The notes under the pieces are model-generated. The model was not told the origin of the DNA. It saw only the letters and a list, made by a program, of their open reading frames with translations, and searched no databases. This document shows positions 9,847 to 39,374 of a stretch of DNA of 39,374 nucleotides, piece by piece. This stretch comes from a virus. A program made the position numbers and the translations under genes. The stretch spans positions 1 through 39,374 of the IMG/VR virus record IMGVR_UViG_3300045988_104640; one strand, 5' to 3'. The stretch's first letter is position 1; the number at the start of each line of letters is the position of its first letter.

Positions 9847-10126
9847 AAGCGATTTTTACGAAAAAAGCATGGAGAGAAAGGAACGATTCTACAAGCTGAT
9901 AAACGATTTCATATCAGAATGCGAAAAGAAAGGAATAAGGACGGATTTTATTGACGATCCCCACGCAAGGGTAATAACAATAGGCATAAAAAAAGATGGT
10001 GCCGCCGCTGCGCTTTCTTATCCGAAAAAAATTGCGTATTTTGAATATGACATTGCAGATATAGAGCAAGGCTTGTCTGATATGTTTCAGTTATTTGCGA
10101 AAAAATACGAGGAGAAAAACCAATGA
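9839..10126 (+). CDS. hypothetical protein, 95 aa
   Basis: SD GGGGAGA, tight packing. Confidence 0.5.
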   Translation: MIESDFYEKSMERKERFYKLINDFISECEKKGIRTDFIDDPHARVITIGIKKDGAAAALSYPKKIAYFEYDIADIEQGLSDMFQLFAKKYEEKNQ

Positions 10127-10551
10127 TTGAGAAATACTATAATTTCGATGTTGACAGATTCCTGGCGGACCATACCGAGCATATAACACGGCTTGCAGAA
10201 TTAAAAGCCGAGAAGCAAGCCGTAGCCGATTCGGGCGGCATGGAGTACGGACACATCCGGGGAAGCGGAATATCTGACCCGACCGCTAGAAGGGCACAAA
10301 AAAGAGAATCTATTGATTGGAAAATCAAAGAGTATGAGGAGTGCATAAGAGGTTACGACAAGCTGACGGCAGACTTAACCGAAGAGGAAAAAATGATGAT
10401 AGAATATCTATCAATCCGTAAGGGAAATGCAAACAGACGGAGTGCCTTTATCACCCTCTCAGAGGCTCTCGGGTACTCGGAATCTAACCTTTACGCATTA
10501 CTTAACGAACTGAGACAAAAACTCCGTAAAATCGCCGATTTTGGGGCATAG
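10123..10551 (+). CDS. ArpU/RinA-like late transcription activator (sigma-70 region-4-like HTH), putative
   Basis: ~140 aa, last gene of the early operon. The C-terminal LTEEEKMMIEYL ... TLSEALGYSESNLYALLNELRQKLRKI resembles sigma region 4. Confidence 0.5.
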   Translation: MIEKYYNFDVDRFLADHTEHITRLAELKAEKQAVADSGGMEYGHIRGSGISDPTARRAQKRESIDWKIKEYEECIRGYDKLTADLTEEEKMMIEYLSIRKGNANRRSAFITLSEALGYSESNLYALLNELRQKLRKIADFGA

Positions 10552-10595: not shown

Positions 10596-10796
10596 CTACA
10601 GCCCAATATAACGTCTCACTGCTCCGCCAACTGGCGTTTTGACGGTTTCGGCGAATGATTCTTCGCACTTGTCGATATATTCCGTCCCTCGCCAGGAAGC
10701 AAACGCGATTTCTCTTTCGATCATCGCTTTGCGATTGATTTTGTGGTCAACCGACTTCAAAATAACATCGCTGCACGCCGTTCTTTCTCTTTTCAT
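10596..10796 (-). CDS. hypothetical protein, 66 aa (last gene of the accessory operon)
   Basis: SD AGGAGG 8 nt before ATG 10796 (MKRERTACSD...). The track start at 10859 lacks an SD. Confidence 0.5.
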   Translation of the reverse strand: MKRERTACSDVILKSVDHKINRKAMIEREIAFASWRGTEYIDKCEESFAETVKTPVGGAVRRYIGL

Positions 10797-10851
10797 TTTC
10801 TCATCCTCCTGTCGCAATTCTATCATTTTGTATTCGCTCAAGTCAATCGTA

Positions 10852-11055
10852 TTAAGCAATCTGAACGCAAAACCTATACTGTTCTATGCCGAAAAGCATG
10901 TAGACACCTGTCATGTCATCATCGAAGTAATTACCGTAATAGGTTAAATTACCCTCTTCAGCTCTAACCTTGTTAAGTTTTACGAAATCAATGTTTTTTG
11001 CGCTACAATGCATTTCATCATGAAAATGGATTGTAGAATTTTCTGAGTATTTCAT
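10852..11055 (-). CDS. hypothetical protein, 67 aa
   Basis: SD GGAGGT 7 nt before ATG 11055 (MKYSENSTIHF...). Confidence 0.55.
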   Translation of the reverse strand: MKYSENSTIHFHDEMHCSAKNIDFVKLNKVRAEEGNLTYYGNYFDDDMTGVYMLFGIEQYRFCVQIA

Positions 11056-11066
11056 CTTTTTTACCT

Positions 11067-11112
11067 CCGTTTCGCTCTTGCTCATCAGTGCCGGACTTGT
11101 ACCGGCAGACGG
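11067..11112 (-). ncRNA. type III hammerhead ribozyme motif
   Basis: Minus strand reads CCGUC UGCCGG-UACAAGU-CCGGCA CUGAUGA GC-AAGA-GC GAAA CGG. The complete invariant core is present, with a 6-bp stem I, 2-bp stem II and 4-bp open stem III. Predicted cut after C at 11108. Confidence 0.6.
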
Positions 11113-11163
11113 GGCGGAAAGTGCCGCCGTTTATTTAATTCTTCTTGTCATGTTTTGAACCTC

Positions 11164-11316
11164 CTAAATTCTAACCCCTAACAACATACAAGTTCGTTTT
11201 GCCTCACAAAACTTAACCCAATTCTCTTTACATGGGCTTTTAATGTAGTCAGCCCTTGCCTTCTTGTATGTTTCTAATGCCTTTGGCATCGCTGTTTTCA
11301 AATCTTCGTATCTCAT
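11164..11316 (-). CDS. hypothetical protein, 50 aa
   Basis: SD AGGAAG before ATG 11316 (MRYEDLKTAMPK...). The longer track ORF would start inside the palindromic element. Confidence 0.45.
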   Translation of the reverse strand: MRYEDLKTAMPKALETYKKARADYIKSPCKENWVKFCEAKRTCMLLGVRI

Positions 11317-11375
11317 TTTTCTACTTCCTTTCTTGGTTGGCATACCGTCGGGTATGTTATGATTGAGGGTTGATG

Positions 11376-11558
11376 TCAACCCTCTTTTAATTTTCTAAGT
11401 GCGTCCCGGAAAACCTCCGTTGTGCTTTCGCCGTTGTGCTTTCGCCGTTCTACCAACGCGATTAGGTCGCTGTCGGTATCTTTTCGCAGGTTCACATGAT
11501 ACTCTGCATAGTTGGCTTTTTTCCAACGGGCTTTTACTTCGCTCGATGTCTTGCCCAT
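11376..11558 (-). CDS. ribbon-helix-helix (Arc/CopG-like) DNA-binding protein, putative operon autoregulator
   Basis: MGKTSSEVKARWKKANYAEYHVNLRKDTDSDLIALVE ... TEVFRDALRKL fits a beta-strand, helix, helix pattern of RHH proteins. Confidence 0.55.
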   Translation of the reverse strand: MGKTSSEVKARWKKANYAEYHVNLRKDTDSDLIALVERRKHNGESTTEVFRDALRKLKEG

Positions 11559-11998
11559 TATTTGAAATCCTCTTCAGTGAAATATGATGTTGCGTTATAC
11601 TCATCTTTTGGGTAGACTTGGAAGATGATATTTTTTTCTTCTTCCGGTTCTAATCCGTTCCAAAACTCTTCGGCTGCTTTGTACGCCGTGCGCGCCTCGG
11701 TGGTACCCATCGTCTGATATTCGTTGACTTGCTGCACATTTTCACCGTATCCAAAGGCTACTGTGAACTTTTGCAAATACGGGAAGTCTACAATGCTGTC
11801 GATGAAGTCTATTTCTTCTCCGTCCTCGTCAACTTCGCATTCATAAACTTCTTCGTGCATGTTGCGCAAATCATCTTTTTCGTACCAATCGTTTTCGGCT
11901 TTTTCTTTTGCCGCTGCTCTTGCTTCCTTTTCTGTGTCAAAGTAGGTGGCTGCTCCTCCGTCCTCTCCTGTCATTGTTACGATCGCATATTTTTTCAT
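11558..11998 (-). CDS. strongly acidic hypothetical protein, 146 aa (first gene of the accessory operon)
   Basis: SD AGGAGA 6 nt before ATG 11998. 37 D/E against 14 K/R by direct count. The track N-terminus (TTG at 12082) lies inside the promoter. Confidence 0.6.
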   Translation of the reverse strand: MKKYAIVTMTGEDGGAATYFDTEKEARAAAKEKAENDWYEKDDLRNMHEEVYECEVDEDGEEIDFIDSIVDFPYLQKFTVAFGYGENVQQVNEYQTMGTTEARTAYKAAEEFWNGLEPEEEKNIIFQVYPKDEYNATSYFTEEDFK

Positions 11999-12052
11999 TT
12001 TCTTTCTCCTTTCAATCGCCCTTGTGGCGTTCCGCTCTTTCGTTGTACCCAT

Positions 12053-12082
12053 GTTATAGCATACCGTCGGGTAGGTTGTCAA
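12053..12082 (-). promoter_or_regulatory. sigma-70-type promoter of the accessory operon with an embedded palindromic element
   Basis: Minus strand: TTGACA (12082-12077), 18-nt spacer, TGc-TATAAC (12058-12053). The spacer contains CCTACCCGACGGTATGC, a near copy of the palindrome at 11340-11356. Confidence 0.6.
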
Positions 12083-12235
12083 CCCCTTTTTTAAATTTTT
12101 TTCAAACTTTTTTCGGCAAAACTAGCAAACCGTTGAAATTTCAATAAATTCTTAATAAAAAAAACAGCGAAACAATGCTATATTAAGTATAGGCAAAGGC
12201 CTTTTCATGGCATACTTTCATCTTTTGCCTCCTTT

Positions 12236-12261
12236 CAAATCAAAAGCCCCGGAAACGGGGC
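12236..12261 (-). terminator. intrinsic-terminator-like hairpin reading on the minus strand
   Basis: Minus strand: GCCCCG-UUUC-CGGGGC followed by UUUUGAUUUG. Confidence 0.45.
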
Positions 12262-12446
12262 AAAGGTTACTACCGGCAGGACCCGCAGCGCAGGCGGCCG
12301 GATAACAGCGCAGCATGTGCCGCGGACGCGCGGGGAATACTGCTGCCATAGACAACCCCGGAGCGCAGGACGGGACACGTTACCGAAACCACGCAGACGG
12401 GGAACGACACTATCGCGCGGATAAATGAACGCAACCGCGCGGATAT

Positions 12447-12529
12447 CGGGAATCGGTGCAGCGGGTGATGCACATCAGACTGTAAATCTGACGCTTACGG
12501 CTTAGCAGGTTCGAATCCTGCATTCCCGA
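12447..12529 (+). tRNA. tRNA-Tyr: tRNA-Tyr (anticodon GUA), class II long variable arm, no encoded CCA
   Basis: - Acceptor stem: CGGGAAU/AUUCCCG.
- D arm: GUGC-AGCGGGUGAU-GCAC.
- Anticodon arm: UCAGA-CUGUAAA-UCUGA.
- Variable arm: 13 nt, with a GCU/GGC stem.
- T arm: GCAGG-UUCGAAU-CCUGC.
- Discriminator: A73. Confidence 0.85.
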
Positions 12530-12587
12530 AATCGGGGGAAACTATACAGGAACACCCTTAAACAGTAAACCAAAACTATATTTTCAT

Positions 12588-12615
12588 AGACAGTCTTATG
12601 CAGGCTGTCTTTTTT
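12588..12615 (+). terminator. intrinsic terminator downstream of the tRNA
   Basis: AGACAG-N11-CTGTCT followed by TTTTT. Confidence 0.6.
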
Positions 12616-13163
12616 CGTGTGTAAAAAGGAAGGGAAAACGGGCAGACATTAGAAGAGGAGGCAAGCCCTCACAGGTTCCACCGCCCCAAAAAGCCGACTG
12701 ACACACGGCGCACAAGCCATACTGGCACACGCAACTATTCCGTAAATGCTATTTTTAGGAATAGTTAGGTAAGCCGCGAAGAACCCTTGCAACCGTTGAA
12801 ATTCCAACATCGTAACGCAGTACAAACAGGGCTTGCATTCCCCTGCACACACGGGCGCACAGCCCCTCGCGCTACATATAGTGGCGTGCTACCCTGCGGC
12901 GGTGATGGTCGGGGTGAATCGTAAACGCACCCACTCGCGCGCGCTTCCCCCCTATACAGAGTACCCGCACCTCTGACCTTGAATCGTAAACACCCCCACT
13001 ATTCGAAAGCAGTCTAATTTCCAAAATTAGAAAAAAATGGGCGGGATTTTGATACAGAAAATGGAAAAAGGCAACTTTGCTCACGGGCGGGATACCCGAA
13101 AAACCGACGAAATGACCTAAAATGTAATATATTAACTGTAAAATGACGAAAAGGGGATAAAAA

Positions 13164-13880
13164 ATGGCAGAAGAGAAAAGGGGAAGAGGCAGACCTAAAG
13201 AGGATGAATTGGTCGTAAAACCGTTTGTACCTCATGTGAGACCTCAAATCAAAGAGAAGAACAAGGAAGCTTATGCGAAGAAAGCAATCCGCAGAGCTGA
13301 CCAACTTTATAAACAGTATGCACAGCCGAGACCGAATCCGCTTAACCTTGAGGATAAGGACTTGACCAAAGAAGCGAAAGAGATGTGGGCTTATATCTTC
13401 TCCACACGGGAAAATCTCAGCGCGGCATTTAATGCAAAGACATTCGAGAATTGCGACGAGATTTTGACCGCCTTTGAGGGGTTTTGCGCATATATCCGCA
13501 ATAACAATTTTATTAAGCAATTCAAAAGACCCGACGGTGGGGATGGTGTAATGCCGATTGTGCCAAATGTCACAAACCTTGCTTTGTGGCTTGGCATTTC
13601 GCGTCGCTCCATGCGTGAGCACCTTGCAAATATGTCACCGTCGCAGGAAGCGGAGTATAAGTCAATGCTTGGCGACTTGCTGTCAGATGGGGCGTTGGTC
13701 GGTGCGTATAATACCTCAAGTGCGATTTTCACGCTAAAGAATCTTTGCGACTGGGCGGATAAACGCGAAGACCGAATCACGAAGGTAGAGGACACCTCTT
13801 CAATCGACGAAGCAAAGAAGAACTTAGAAGAACTCGGATATGTGAGACCTCGGTTATTAGAGGGTGGAAAAAATGAATAA
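13164..13880 (+). CDS. terS: terminase small subunit
   Basis: Immediately upstream of and overlapping terL. Basic N-terminus (KRGRGRPK) and HTH-like NVTNLALWLGISRRSMREHL. Confidence 0.65.
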   Translation: MAEEKRGRGRPKEDELVVKPFVPHVRPQIKEKNKEAYAKKAIRRADQLYKQYAQPRPNPLNLEDKDLTKEAKEMWAYIFSTRENLSAAFNAKTFENCDEILTAFEGFCAYIRNNNFIKQFKRPDGGDGVMPIVPNVTNLALWLGISRRSMREHLANMSPSQEAEYKSMLGDLLSDGALVGAYNTSSAIFTLKNLCDWADKREDRITKVEDTSSIDEAKKNLEELGYVRPRLLEGGKNE

Positions 13881-15330
13881 TGTTTTAAAGCTCTATAACG
13901 ATGTTTTGAGGACGGATTATTGCGCGTATGTAAAACATACCAACAATGACTACAAAGTCAGCAAATTCCACCGTTTTTTGTGTGATACGGTGCAAGATTT
14001 TCTTGAAGAGGACACAGGACATGCATACGATATTCTGATTTTATCGACACCGCCGCAGCACGGCAAGTCTGTAACGGTGACAGAGACGCTTCCGAGTTGG
14101 TATCTTGGACGGAATCCGGAAAAGTCTGTAATTGAAATTTCTTACGGACAAGACTTTGCACAGCGTTTCGGTAGGCGAAACCTTAGAAAAATCCAAGAAT
14201 ACGGCGGAGAAATCTTTGGCATTCGTATTGGCAGCCCGGCTAATGCCACAGAATTTGAACTGGAAGGACATCGCGGCGGAATGACAAGCTGCGGACTTCT
14301 TACAGGCGTAACCGGACGGCGATGTGACTTGATGATCATTGACGACCCTGTTAAGACCCAACAAGAAGCGGATTCCGAGAGTTATCGTAATCGAGTGTTT
14401 GATGAATGGCTTTCGTCGTACAAGACAAGATTATATGCCGGGGCGAAAATAATCTTGATTATGACGCGTTGGCATGAAGATGACCTTGCAGGCAGACTGA
14501 TAGAGACAGAGGAAAATGTAAAAGTAGTCAATATCCCGTTAGAAGCTGAACCAAACGATATCTTAGGCCGAAAGGTAGGCGATGCGCTTTGCCCCGAAAT
14601 CGGCAAAGATAATGTTTGGCTTGCCGACTTCAAGAAGTCATATACCAGCGTGAGCGGTTCGCGTGCATGGAATGCATTGTTTCAAGGACACCCGACAGGG
14701 CTTGAAGGTAACCTTATCAAGCGCGAATGGTGGCAGTATTATGATACGCTTCCCGAGATTGTAACTTGGGGAATGAGTGTTGACGCGACTTTTAAAGACG
14801 GAAAAGACAACGACTTTGTCGCAATTCAAGTATGGGGAAAAAATGGCCCTGATATGTACTTGATAGACGCGGTACGAAATCACCTTGATATGCCGTCAAC
14901 CATGCGTGAAATTATCAGACTTCGGGCAATGTACCCGAAATGCAAAACGACTTACATAGAAGATAAAGCGAACGGCTCTGCCATAATCAAATATTTGCGC
15001 ACACATATGACGGGAATTATCGCAGTCAACCCCGACGGCGGTAAGGTATCTCGTGTAAATGCGGTTATAGGTGCAATCGAAAGCGGAAACTGCTTTCTTC
15101 CGAGAAATAAACCGTTTACAGGTTCTTTTATAGACGAATGCGCAGCTTTTCCGAACGGAAAACATGACGACCAAGTTGACTGTATGAGCCAAATGCTGAA
15201 TAAATTCATCTATTCGAGCGCGAAAATAGCGAAAGTCATAGAGGAATCACCTTTAATTCGTAATTTTCCGGGCTTGAAGAAAAAAAGAGGGAAAAAATTC
15301 GACAAAGGAGACAAAATTCATGTTATCTAA
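13873..15330 (+). CDS. terL: terminase large subunit
   Basis: Walker A-like STPPQHGKS, Walker B CDLMIIDDP, coupling motif MTRWHEDDL, and a C-terminal RNaseH-like nuclease (VDATF ... DDQVDC). SD GAGGGTGG before ATG 13873. Confidence 0.9.
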   Translation: MNNVLKLYNDVLRTDYCAYVKHTNNDYKVSKFHRFLCDTVQDFLEEDTGHAYDILILSTPPQHGKSVTVTETLPSWYLGRNPEKSVIEISYGQDFAQRFGRRNLRKIQEYGGEIFGIRIGSPANATEFELEGHRGGMTSCGLLTGVTGRRCDLMIIDDPVKTQQEADSESYRNRVFDEWLSSYKTRLYAGAKIILIMTRWHEDDLAGRLIETEENVKVVNIPLEAEPNDILGRKVGDALCPEIGKDNVWLADFKKSYTSVSGSRAWNALFQGHPTGLEGNLIKREWWQYYDTLPEIVTWGMSVDATFKDGKDNDFVAIQVWGKNGPDMYLIDAVRNHLDMPSTMREIIRLRAMYPKCKTTYIEDKANGSAIIKYLRTHMTGIIAVNPDGGKVSRVNAVIGAIESGNCFLPRNKPFTGSFIDECAAFPNGKHDDQVDCMSQMLNKFIYSSAKIAKVIEESPLIRNFPGLKKKRGKKFDKGDKIHVI

Positions 15331-15574
15331 CCTTACGATTTTGATTTTAGCCGTTATGACACCATTCTTGAGTGTCTTTTGTTTTATAAAAGGCTACAAT
15401 ATCGGCGCAAAAGAGACGAATAAGCCCGAAATAAAGCTTGAAACACCAATCGAAAAGATTGAAAAGGCAAAAGAACAGAAAAAGACAAAGAAACGCAACG
15501 ATAGACTTAATGCAATTCTCGACAATATAAACAATTATCATGGCGACAGTACAGGTCAGAGGGAGATTTCGTAA
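15320..15574 (+). CDS. small membrane protein, 84 aa
   Basis: N-terminal TM segment LTILILAVMTPFLSVFCFI, then a K/E-rich tail. SD AAAGGAGA. Confidence 0.55.
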   Translation: MLSNLTILILAVMTPFLSVFCFIKGYNIGAKETNKPEIKLETPIEKIEKAKEQKKTKKRNDRLNAILDNINNYHGDSTGQREIS

Positions 15575-17241
15575 TGGAAAACAAAGTATACACCAAAATA
15601 TGGATGATGTACCAAAAATGCAAAGATTATCTTGATAAAAAAAGACTTGTCAAGAAAACCGAGCGAAACTGGAACTTCTATATTGGCAACCAGTGGGTTG
15701 GATGTAATACCGGGGGAGAGGAACTTCCGGTTATTAACTTTATTTCCCCGATAGTGAGGTACAAAACGGCGATTGTGTCGCAAAATTCAATGACTGCCAA
15801 GTACTCTGACATCGAGGAAAGAGCCGACTTGCAGCCGATATACGAACTTCTAAACCAAAATTTCTCTAAAAACTGGGAAAAGGCCAAAATGGATTCAAAA
15901 ACATGGGATATCATCAAGGCTTCGTGCATTCAAGGTGATTCTTACGCATATTGGGGCACTGATAGAACGGACATGCCACCAAAGATATTGCCAAACACGG
16001 CGGTGCTTTTAGGAGATGAAAACATCACCGAACTGCAAGAGCAGCCATTTATCATTATCCGCGAAAGGCTTGAGGTTGAGGCAGTAAGAAGCGTAGCAAA
16101 GGCGAACGGAATCGCGAAAAAGGAAATAGAATTGATTGTCGGAGACGATAATGCGAACTCAAATAACGGTGTTATCCTGAACAACGACGAAGTTTCTAAT
16201 AAGGTAACCTCGCTTTTATACATGACAAAGGAGAATGGCATTGTCAAAGTGGCACGTTCCACCTCACAATGCATATACGAACCTCTTCATGCGATTGAGG
16301 GCGATGTAACAGGACTGCACTCGTACCCGATTTGCTCCATGATATGGGAGCCGGTACCATACAACGCAAGAGGAATTTCGGAAGTTGCACAAATGATACC
16401 GAACCAGTTAGAGGTCAACAAGACGGCGGCAAGACGAGCAATCACCGTAAAACTGTGTGCATTCCCTCGTATTGCGTACGATTCGAGTACCGTACAGAAC
16501 CCCGAAGACTTAGACACGGTTGGAAAGCCGATTCAAGTCAACGGCGGCGGTGCACAGTCGGTAGCACAGCAAGTAGCATACCTTAACGCAACGAACATTT
16601 CAAGCGACGCAAAGAACTTGCAAGATGATTTATTGCAGACGACGAAAGACCTTGCCGGAGCGAGTGATTACGCAATGGGTAATGTCAACCCTGAACAAGC
16701 GTCCGGACAAGCTATCATAGCAGTAAGAGATAGTGCGCAAATTCCATTGAATGAGAATGTGGCAAGATTCAAACAGTTTGTAGAAGATGTTGCCTTGTTA
16801 TGGTTCGACATGTGGGTGGCTTATCATCCCGAAGGGATTAACGTAACCTCAATTAACGATATGGGAGAGGAAGTGCAGACCTTAATTGACCAACAGCAAT
16901 TACAAGAATTAAAGCCTACCGTAAGGATTGATGTATCACAGGATAACCAGTGGACGAAACTTTCCGAACAACAATGGCTTGACAATATGTTTGACCGTCA
17001 GCAGCTTTCCTTAGAGGAATACGCAGAGCTTGCACCGGATAACGGCTCCGTGCCAAAAGGCAAGTTAAGAGCGGTTCTTTCAAAGCGAGAAGCAATGATG
17101 AAGAAACAGCAAGAAGACAGCGGTGCGGCCTTTGCAAGGCAGGTGCTTGACCTTGTATCGCAAGGCATACCGCAAGAAGAGGCAATCGCCTTAGTACAAC
17201 AGAATATCAGTCAAGAGACAGCCCAAGAGGTTGTTTTTTAA
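15574..17241 (+). CDS. portal protein
   Basis: 555 aa, directly after terL. N-terminal NWNFYIGNQWVG is typical of SPP1-type portals. Confidence 0.8.
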   Translation: MENKVYTKIWMMYQKCKDYLDKKRLVKKTERNWNFYIGNQWVGCNTGGEELPVINFISPIVRYKTAIVSQNSMTAKYSDIEERADLQPIYELLNQNFSKNWEKAKMDSKTWDIIKASCIQGDSYAYWGTDRTDMPPKILPNTAVLLGDENITELQEQPFIIIRERLEVEAVRSVAKANGIAKKEIELIVGDDNANSNNGVILNNDEVSNKVTSLLYMTKENGIVKVARSTSQCIYEPLHAIEGDVTGLHSYPICSMIWEPVPYNARGISEVAQMIPNQLEVNKTAARRAITVKLCAFPRIAYDSSTVQNPEDLDTVGKPIQVNGGGAQSVAQQVAYLNATNISSDAKNLQDDLLQTTKDLAGASDYAMGNVNPEQASGQAIIAVRDSAQIPLNENVARFKQFVEDVALLWFDMWVAYHPEGINVTSINDMGEEVQTLIDQQQLQELKPTVRIDVSQDNQWTKLSEQQWLDNMFDRQQLSLEEYAELAPDNGSVPKGKLRAVLSKREAMMKKQQEDSGAAFARQVLDLVSQGIPQEEAIALVQQNISQETAQEVVF

Positions 17242-38934: not shown

Positions 38935-39374
38935 ATGAAAGGTTTTAAAGCATTTGAGCCCGGGCTAATCTGCAAGGGCAAACAATATGAGGAAAACGCT
39001 ATAGCAACAGAGGAGAAAGCGATACCGTGCGATTGTGGTCTTCACTTTTGCAAAAATCCTTTCGATGTATTAGATTACTACCCATTGATAACAGAAAACG
39101 GAAAATTTTCAGAATTTGCTGAAGTTGAAGCATTGGACGAGCCTGTAACAAACGATAAAAAGAAGTATTGCACAACTAAATTAAAGGTTGGTGCAAAGTT
39201 AAGTTTCGAGGGATTCGTGAGGGCTTGCATAGATTTCGTTTTTGTGAGAACAGTTAAGAGTATGCCGGATAATAGTCACGGCTATTCCGCGAAGATAGGC
39301 AGTAGCGGCAATTCCGCGAAGATAGGCAGTAGCGGCAATTCCGCGCAGATAGGCAGTAGCGGCAATTCCGCGCA
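38935..39374 (+). CDS. N-terminal part of the repeat-containing phage protein that continues at nt 2-307
   Basis: SD AAAGGAGAG before ATG 38935, with no stop to the window end. The N-domain MKGFKAFEPGLICKGKQYEE ... CDCGLHFCKNPFDVLDYYP is followed by (I)GSSGNSA(K/Q) 9-aa repeats. From memory, it resembles a widespread phage family with this layout. Confidence 0.75.
   Translation, partial: MKGFKAFEPGLICKGKQYEENAIATEEKAIPCDCGLHFCKNPFDVLDYYPLITENGKFSEFAEVEALDEPVTNDKKKYCTTKLKVGAKLSFEGFVRACIDFVFVRTVKSMPDNSHGYSAKIGSSGNSAKIGSSGNSAQIGSSGNSA

Follow-up and report, generated by a model that had tools for sequence, protein, structure and literature searches.

What fills a gene-free, GC-rich kilobase that contains a tRNA and lies just upstream of the terminase genes of a phage? 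We addressed this question in IMG/VR record IMGVR_UViG_3300045988_104640, whose full 39,374 nucleotides are called the window here. The window is a temperate phage genome of ~39 kb from the human gut, and its host is probably a Clostridia bacterium. An initial annotation had read the gap before the terS-like gene as a candidate large structured RNA of the ROOL or GOLLD type, with a cos/pac site and late promoter as the alternative. We find the proposal of a new RNA of this type to be in the main refuted. We read the region as a feature of an ordinary kind, a junction for late-operon control and packaging that carries a cargo tRNA, in an unstudied group of phages. As to its workings, the arrangement of motifs suggests that the gap at 11999-13163 serves as a modular control junction, with a leftward accessory operon on one side and the late (terS-terL-portal) operon on the other, a model that we regard as evenly poised between right and wrong.

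The gap does not behave as a large structured RNA

We compared the locus with ~20 distinct homologous regions, plus remoter ones reached via TerS homologues of 53-79% identity; the related contigs (n = 25) come from human-gut and other metagenomes. The absence of coding signal was confirmed, as each of the six frames holds 11-21 stop codons and the indels among relatives are not multiples of three. The gene-free stretch had been placed at 12083-13163. Five small leftward genes fill 10596-11998, so the real gap is the divergent junction at 11999-13163. Its GC richness was likewise borne out (G or C at 41 of the 60 bases of 12241-12300), with the 200-nt GC maximum of the whole window, 0.64, at 12241 (mean 0.429, sd 0.049). 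All of the sequence elements listed in the initial annotation were found in place, among them the helices that had suggested an RNA:

12246-12261: hairpin GCCCCGGAAACGGGGC
12414-12420 and 12435-12441: helix arms CGCGCGG/CCGCGCG
12733-12741 and 12758-12766: helix arms AACTATTCC/GGAATAGTT
12869-12875 and 12881-12887: helix arms GCGCTAC/GTGGCGT
12661-12669 and 12828-12836: long-range arms GCAAGCCCT/AGGGCTTGC

The helix density mostly reflects composition, because folding is only marginally better than that of dinucleotide shuffles: z = -2.45 for the plus-strand leader (12190-12446), -1.35 for the minus strand of the same interval and -1.25 for 12616-13163. The long-range 9-bp helix is not conserved, as only 48% of cells show it paired. 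Only the inner four pairs of the 12869/12881 helix are kept in relatives, and the 12733/12758 helix shows no variation among them. RNAalifold, applied to 12604-13166 with 18 relatives, returned 39 pairs in 647 columns at -20.9 kcal/mol, including a covariation term of -1.28 kcal/mol; in the shared GC-rich module it returned 13 pairs, 0 of 13 compensated. Covariance-model searches, which the initial annotation had proposed as a check, matched nothing but the tRNA. With cmscan at E ≤ 10, 11900-13300 gave no other family (no ROOL, RF03087; no GOLLD, RF01998; no ribozyme), only tRNA reached the Rfam gathering score in the window and 16 relatives, and no family but tRNA appeared at E ≤ 1 in 8 further loci.

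The GC-rich stretch at 12262-12446 and the tRNA that follows it behave as exchangeable segments that are mosaic across relatives. L021 and L022 lack both the GC-rich stretch and the tRNA. The stretch is cut short in L005 and L008, follows the tRNA in L020, and gives way to unrelated sequence in L001, L040 and L042. The tRNA occurs in ~10 loci, or about half of the relatives (6 of the 16 loci scanned, plus copies marked by a T-arm motif); only a 5' stub of it is left in L004 and L028, and in L031 it is joined to the leader hairpin.

A new ROOL/GOLLD-type RNA of ~0.4-1 kb, transcribed around the tRNA, is therefore very improbable. In its favor, the stretch is ORF (open reading frame)-free, GC-rich and adjoins a tRNA, the closest prophage relatives lie in Clostridia genomes, and the plus-strand leader folds slightly better than shuffles. 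The likeness to ROOL and GOLLD extends to the phage context and the tRNA neighbor; here, however, there is no covariance-model match, the consensus fold is weak with almost no covariation and no conserved multi-helix architecture, and the region is split by an intrinsic terminator and varies by whole segments that are optional and reordered. Its long-range helix is not conserved, and the most conserved helix-like element behaves as a DNA operator. The lack of a covariance-model match and of compensatory changes in conserved sequence is what the initial annotation itself had named as evidence against its proposal. The GC-rich "island" is cargo of a promoter unit described below, not a conserved fold. 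GC-rich, hairpin-rich, tRNA-adjacent phage gaps thus need not be ornate RNAs, since the signal here arises from exchangeable cargo and protein-binding DNA.

A conserved module upstream of terS

The anatomy, conservation and distribution of the region were observed directly in the window and its relatives. Conservation in the terS-proximal module (12733-13010) exceeds that of the adjacent terS DNA, and its elements and the genes downstream are as follows:

12733-12766: IR-34, AACTATTCC-N16-GGAATAGTT, a 9-bp inverted repeat and candidate operator, invariant in 18 of 18 relatives
12791-12807: palindrome box copy 2, AACCGTTGAAATTCCAA, direct-repeat family D3 with 12128-12144
12869-12887: CTACATATAGTG palindrome resembling a single NrdR box; core conserved in 18 relatives, outer pairs broken
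12915-12935: direct repeat R1, TGAATCGTAAACGCACCCACT, 21 nt, family D2, near-invariant, with CCCACT at the -35 position
12947-12978: invariant core CCCCTATACAGAGTAC...CACCT (invariant columns), with a -10-like TATACA at 12953-12958
12980-13000: direct repeat R2, TGAATCGTAAACACCCCCACT, 21 nt, family D2
13164-13880, plus strand: terS-like gene, the first late gene, with a weak GP3_package match; overlaps terL
13864-15330: terL, Terminase_6N/6C, phrog_38
15574-17241: P22-like portal gene

IR-34 is present exactly in 78 IMG/VR stretches from ~40 samples, compared with 0 for a composition-matched scrambled palindrome. For 21 loci that encode a TerL homologue, the distance to the downstream terL is 293-589 nt, and the A-rich half of the spacer invariably comes first. 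A terS homologue is found upstream of IR-34 in ~8 of these loci, which makes terS, IR-34, R1-core-R2, an optional tRNA and terL the usual order. Variants of IR-34 carry uncompensated changes in a single arm (GGCATAGTT recurs) and the spacer shows no covariation, a pattern that fits a protein operator with two half-sites, not a hairpin. A literature search for the arms returned primer coincidences only; IR-34 and its fixed relation to terL are undescribed in the literature searched.

IR-34 is also present in ~50 phage contigs in which no TerL relative was detectable nearby. In these loci (L132-L202) it is often tandem, with copies 75 or 105 nt apart (L150 3410-3548, L136 8873-8981). The tandem pairs bracket paired NrdR-box-like palindromes or a TTGAAA palindrome, with GAACATATGTTC alongside, and the genes beside them are mostly of unknown function (phrog_20187 recurs, and one is an HNH gene). 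The surrounding palindromes, namely GAACATATGTTC, CGAAAACGTTTTCG and paired, NrdR-box-like CACTATATATAGT, are enriched over background, and we take GAACATATGTTC to be of the LexA/Cheo-box type. It is possible, if doubtful, that IR-34, with a spacer A-rich then T-rich, is the operator of an undescribed and perhaps host-encoded regulator in many gut and rumen Firmicutes phages. In one large phage group its distance and polarity relative to terL are fixed. Such a regulator could couple the expression of late and packaging genes to a common cellular signal, and a protein that binds IR-34, if found, would offer a handle on the timing of packaging in these phages. A near-complete copy of IR-34, with one arm mismatch and a 17-nt spacer, was seen in a gut microvirus, Dulem virus 198 (L203 1201-1238), in a noncoding gap between the peptidase and replication-initiator genes. 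Microvirus matches (this one, with the others being half-sites) were set aside as too weak to use.

The box-like sequence at 12869-12884 agrees at 12 of 14 positions with what we take to be the NrdR consensus. CACTATATATAGT pairs, related to the CTACATATAGTG palindrome, adjoin IR-34 in other phages as paired NrdR-like boxes. An NrdR operator consists of two 16-bp NrdR boxes that are 15-16 bp apart (PMC13584703); in the window, no partner box was found 31-32 nt from 12869-12884.

Downstream, the module contains a promoter-like pair, CCCACT and TATACA separated by 17 nt, embedded in two 21-nt repeats. The CCCACT-type hexamer of R1 lies 15-17 nt upstream of TA[TG][AG][CT]A in the window, L036, L038, L040, L042, L043, L160 and L161, and this constant spacing in eight diverged phages argues for a promoter. 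The interval from R2 to the terL ribosome-binding site holds a tRNA in L160-type phages and has no space for a separate tRNA promoter, so that a promoter in the core would be needed. Even phages with a TerL of only 53-67% identity retain the AGTAC/GGTAC core. From phage to phage, R1 and R2 differ in step (CCCACT, CCCCTC, GGGACT), and an A-tract follows R2. Two additional IMG/VR matches to a 16-mer of the invariant core were dismissed as chance matches. HNH endonuclease genes lie beside the module in two relatives: after it and just upstream of terS in L019, and between terS and the module in an Ihubacter prophage (L043, 3637-3915).

Divergent promoters and the P_R unit

The distal part of the gap is organized around two divergent promoters, the rightward of which we call P_R:

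12053-12082, minus strand: sigma-70-type promoter TTGACA-N18-TATAAC (with TG), found by pattern matching; serves the accessory operon from ATG 11998
12084-12113: between the divergent promoters, phased T-tracts that are conserved throughout the relatives, L036-L043 among them
12128-12144: palindrome box copy 1, AACCGTTGAAATTTCAA, direct-repeat family D3 with 12791-12807
12176-12184, plus strand: extended -10 promoter P_R, TGCTATATT
12183-12236, minus strand: Shine-Dalgarno (SD)-like GAAAGGAGG with an ATGAAA start and a 12-codon ORF (CCUCCUUUC on the plus strand, in the leader)
12246-12261, plus strand: GNRA-loop hairpin of the leader, which 17 of 19 relatives retain
12262-12446, plus strand: GC-rich, T-poor variable filler (64% GC, 17% T)
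12447-12529, plus strand: tRNA-Tyr, anticodon GTA, class II, no encoded CCA (RF00005, 50.6 bits against a gathering score of 29)
12588-12615, plus strand: intrinsic terminator ending the P_R unit, 9 pairs followed by TTTTTT

The leftward promoter retains TGTCAAC and its -10 invariantly in 19 relatives and is followed by the SD and ATG of the 146-aa gene, and its palindromic spacer varies symmetrically (TACCGTCGGGTA, TACAGGCTTGTA, CACTGCAATCGGTG). The extended -10 proposed in the initial annotation is well supported, as its free positions vary in 19 relatives with TGnTAnAAT kept (TGGTACAAT, TGTTAAAAT, TGGTAAAAT, TGTTATAAT, TGATATAAT). The pattern persists in distant relatives: L036 (TGCTATAAT), L040 (TGGTAAAAT), L042 (TGATATAAT) and the prophages L043 and L047 (TAGTATAAT). 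The motif CCGTTGAAA occurs at two places only in the window, the two palindrome boxes, and the box pair is also present in L038, L040 and L043. The AACCGTTGAAATT(T/C)CAA box thereby has one copy adjoining P_R and its sole other copy in the terS-proximal module.

The leader hairpin sits ~55-70 nt past the P_R -10. Among relatives its closing pair flips from G-C to C-G, a G-U pair appears in one sequence, and the plus-strand loop reads GAAA, GCAA, GAGA, GCAAU or UGCG. Loops of the GNRA or UNCG type appear on the plus strand only, which favors a plus-strand RNA. For the same reason we dropped a solitary CRISPR-repeat-like interpretation (minus-strand hairpin plus TTGAAAG), which had come from reading the sequence. 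The terminator at 12588-12615 was also upheld: 17 of 19 relatives retain it, at -10 to -11.5 kcal/mol, and its stem and loop differ among them. The initial annotation had further noted a minus-strand terminator-like hairpin that left the transcribed strand ambiguous. Our scan found both this hairpin and the plus-strand terminator, in a number of sites not above that in shuffles, but only the plus-strand one is conserved as a terminator in relatives.

The Ihubacter and DFI.6.37 prophages (L043, L047) carry the same promoter-leader-terminator array 35-45 nt before the terS start, which suggests that the unit was ancestrally the entry to the packaging genes. In the lineage of the window, the P_R unit acquired cargo.

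One conserved feature of the leader lies on the opposite strand. CTCCTTTC is invariant in 19 relatives with TTTCAT 0-11 nt away; the invariant CCTCCTTTC (12228-12236) and the TTTCAT upstream of it amount to a perfect minus-strand SD and ATGAAA start. The ORF that follows spans 4-39 codons (12, 5, 14, 39, 4, 21), is not conserved in sequence and overlaps the P_R -10. CTCCTTTCAA is also the SD of the real gene at 11998 (repeat family D10). On the plus strand, we take CCUCCUUUC to be a copy of the anti-SD at the 16S 3' end.

A candidate late activator

One gene is a candidate activator of a late promoter in the module:

10123-10551, plus strand: final gene of the early operon, which runs rightward; candidate late activator of the Ltr type (sigma-70 region-4-like)

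Position and size of the protein fit an Ltr activator. It is encoded in all relatives at 53-61% identity, falling to 31% in the Ihubacter prophage. Its AlphaFold2 model (predicted local distance difference test score, pLDDT, 78) matched phage proteins in BFVD by Foldseek at E values of 1e-3 to 0.2 with template modeling (TM) scores up to 0.69, and these matches are named sigma-70 region 4, extracytoplasmic function (ECF) sigma, DUF1492 or transcriptional activator. Among the homologues, one matches HTH_11 at 7e-5 and one Sigma70_r4 at 0.07. For the window protein itself, Pfam, NCBIfam and PHROG gave no match, and a fold search of the Protein Data Bank gave nothing significant. Its predicted recognition helix reads SESNLYALL in the window and DRTATYDRL in relatives.

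Late promoter, packaging site or antitermination element

The model that we favor would work as follows. The sigma-70 promoter would fire leftward and the extended -10 promoter P_R (12176-12184) rightward, yielding a short noncoding plus-strand transcript that comprises a leader with a GNRA-capped hairpin and the exchangeable cargo and ends at 12588-12615. Proteins would read the module at 12733-13010 as double-stranded DNA, through the 34-bp, two-half-site operator IR-34 and a TTGAAATTTCAA-type palindrome that is also present beside P_R. CCCACT-17 nt-TATACA would be the late promoter, served by the 10123-10551 protein in the manner of RinA, ArpU and Ltr, and transcripts that begin near 12965 would include R2 and a leader of ~200 nt ahead of terS. 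The terS-proximal module may accordingly combine a late promoter and operator, responsive to a sigma-region-4-like activator, with a possibly overlapping pac site. We infer the pairing of protein and motif, the transcription start sites and any need of late transcription for read-through of the 12588 terminator from this arrangement.

Late promoters of Gram-positive siphoviruses are controlled by Ltr activators (RinA, ArpU, LtrA/B/C), whose binding sites are direct repeats ahead of terS (Quiles-Puchalt et al. 2013, PMC3753634). The present locus shares with Ltr late promoters the direct repeats upstream of terS, the temperate lifestyle and a late operon that starts at terS. Several observations nevertheless weigh against the favored model. 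In the Ltr paradigm the repeats directly follow the ltr gene, whereas here 1.4 kb of leftward accessory genes and the tRNA-bearing P_R unit separate them. No hidden Markov model (HMM) places the window protein in RinA, ArpU, DUF1492 or Sigma70_r4 or otherwise names it, and the fold matches are weak (E 1e-3 to 0.2). There are two repeats only, one upstream and one downstream of the -10-like core, so that R2 lies past the start site, an unusual place for an activator site. The -35-like CCCACT is not the sigma-A consensus. The recognition helix of the 10123 protein differs among phages in which R1 and R2 are unchanged, which argues that this protein does not read them. Most related phages have the module after terS and before terL, which would place terS outside a module-driven operon there. 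Finally, the conserved minus-strand SD and ATGAAA (12221-12236) fit no explanation; none suits all relatives.

Much of the same evidence bears on packaging. The module (IR-34, R1, core, R2 and A-tract) could be the terminase recognition and cleavage region, a pac or, less likely, a cos site, with TerS bound to both direct repeats and TerL cutting at the AGTAC core or in IR-34. In SPP1, pacL and pacR flank pacC. A Terminase_6N/6C TerL, a P22-like portal and a weakly gp3-like TerS form a headful-type set, and repeats that flank a core near terminase genes and an A-tract after R2 complete the likeness to SPP1/P22-type pac sites. Whether it lies before or after terS, the module is always associated with terL, and conservation of its core is highest in phages with a conserved TerL. 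Among phages with TerS identities of only 22-54%, R1 and R2 vary jointly; the TerS helix-turn-helix (HTH) is invariant in relatives with identical repeats, TerS bears an AT-hook-like RGRGRP motif, and HNH genes adjoin the module in L019 and L043. The sequences, however, are unrelated to the known pac sites, and the locus is known solely from assembled contigs, whose ends are scattered. Two of them, from L003 and L029, are close to the module, at 316 and 320 nt ahead of terS and 30 nt apart; we rejected them as physical termini, as they occupy different aligned positions at a mosaic junction. L042 and L043 have similar TerS helices with different repeats, and the -35/-10-like geometry would have no role in a pac site. 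The ~50 contigs that carry IR-34 away from any detectable terminase count against packaging as well, because their IR-34, often tandem among LexA-box-like and NrdR-box-like palindromes, looks regulatory. We accordingly rate pac as a distinctly weaker contender than a late promoter and operator, which stands about level between right and wrong; the two readings are not mutually exclusive, and the cos/pac and late-promoter alternative of the initial annotation comes close to the one we favor.

A different route into the late genes would run through P_R. Here the leader (CCUCCUUUC, the GNRA hairpin and a small hairpin after it) would act in cis as an antitermination or attenuation element, and the late genes would be reached by read-through at 12588, as with lambda P_R'-tR'/Q, nut/boxB or HK022 put. 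In all relatives, the late genes are preceded by a strong conserved promoter and, after it, a conserved terminator. The terminator of prophages L043 and L047 is 35-45 nt from the terS start with no promoter between, so that terS expression there requires read-through. The restriction of GNRA and UNCG loops to the plus strand and a conserved -10-like ATAGT past the -10 in all relatives point the same way. No Q-, N- or LoaP-like protein was found, however, L031 has lost the hairpin and L001 and L024 have a weak one, L040 and L042 do not share the leader sequence, and covariation is confined to one or two pairs. We therefore consider this mechanism unlikely. The late promoter and operator model provides a testable map of the late-gene entry point in a common group of uncultured human-gut Clostridia phages.

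Cargo of the P_R unit

Other explanations of the GC-rich filler found no support. A 17-mer of this module has 12 matches in IMG/VR, nine of them on contigs outside the known relatives, about the number estimated by chance. A CsrA sponge was rejected because neither GGA nor AGGA is enriched over Markov shuffles. The idea of a decayed tRNA came from ATCGGGGGAAT repeats (~110-nt period) that resemble a tRNA 5' end; it was unsupported, with no tRNA-like covariance-model match at E ≤ 1.

The tRNA had been called a well-formed tRNA-Tyr. Its identity stands (50.6 bits, anticodon GTA), and its form is less regular than claimed: ARAGORN missed it at the default setting and found it only with a lowered threshold (-ps), its D stem having 3 bp and its long variable arm pairing poorly. 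Bacterial tRNA-Tyr normally begins with a G1-C72 pair. The window copy combines a C1-G72 first pair with its long variable arm, and CCA, which relatives encode, is not encoded in it.

The closest known counterparts are cargo tRNA genes of phages such as the tRNA-Tyr of mycobacteriophage D29. Both consist of a single tRNA-Tyr(GUA) with its own promoter and terminator, and the window tRNA is 86% identical to D29-like tRNA-Tyr genes over the 3' 55 nt. The window copy differs in falling below the ARAGORN default threshold, in its C1-G72 pair and in having no encoded CCA; tRNAs of its type are dispensable, being deleted in close relatives. Different tRNAs (Tyr, Gln, Ile-like UAU and others, read by eye) occupy the space between the module and terL in L160, L165, L147 and L047. 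The presence of different tRNAs in one noncoding slot upstream of terL suggests that the slot is a recurrent landing pad, and tRNAs recur just upstream of terminase genes in this phage group.

Phage genome and relatives

To the left, the window encodes recombination and replication functions (a NinB/Orf-like mediator, DnaD-like and DnaC-like loaders, a methyltransferase and a single-stranded DNA-binding protein). Its right part encodes an integrase, a repressor, a second HTH regulator and a recombination directionality factor. The terS-like protein has the AT-hook-like RGRGRP at its N-terminus, followed by the HTH that is invariant among relatives. A leftward gene, encoding 146 aa, starts at ATG 11998. 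A 27-nt tandem repeat (GCAGATAGGCAGTAGCGGCAATTCCGC) is present at both window ends (1-120 and 39255-39374) with a 30-nt terminal overlap, so the assembly is probably circular and broken within the repeat.

By TerL, the nearest prophages are those of Ihubacter sp. (67%) and of Clostridia metagenome-assembled genomes. GenBank phages yielded no relative except for the tRNA part, and GTDB genomes searched with terS yielded no match.

A hammerhead-like motif to the left of the gap

Within the leftward operon, a motif resembling a type III hammerhead ribozyme lies at 11064-11115 on the minus strand (RF00008, 29.6 bits against a gathering score of 48.5; E = 0.002 in a 4.1-kb search). Its cores, CUGAUGAG and CGAAAC, and the GUC cleavage site are intact, and CGGAGG, the 3' strand of stem I, also provides the SD for the ORF downstream (ATG 11085). 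The motif scores 29-30 bits in L024 and L033, and 11055-11123 forms an island of ~85-95% identity in relatives with different flanking genes.

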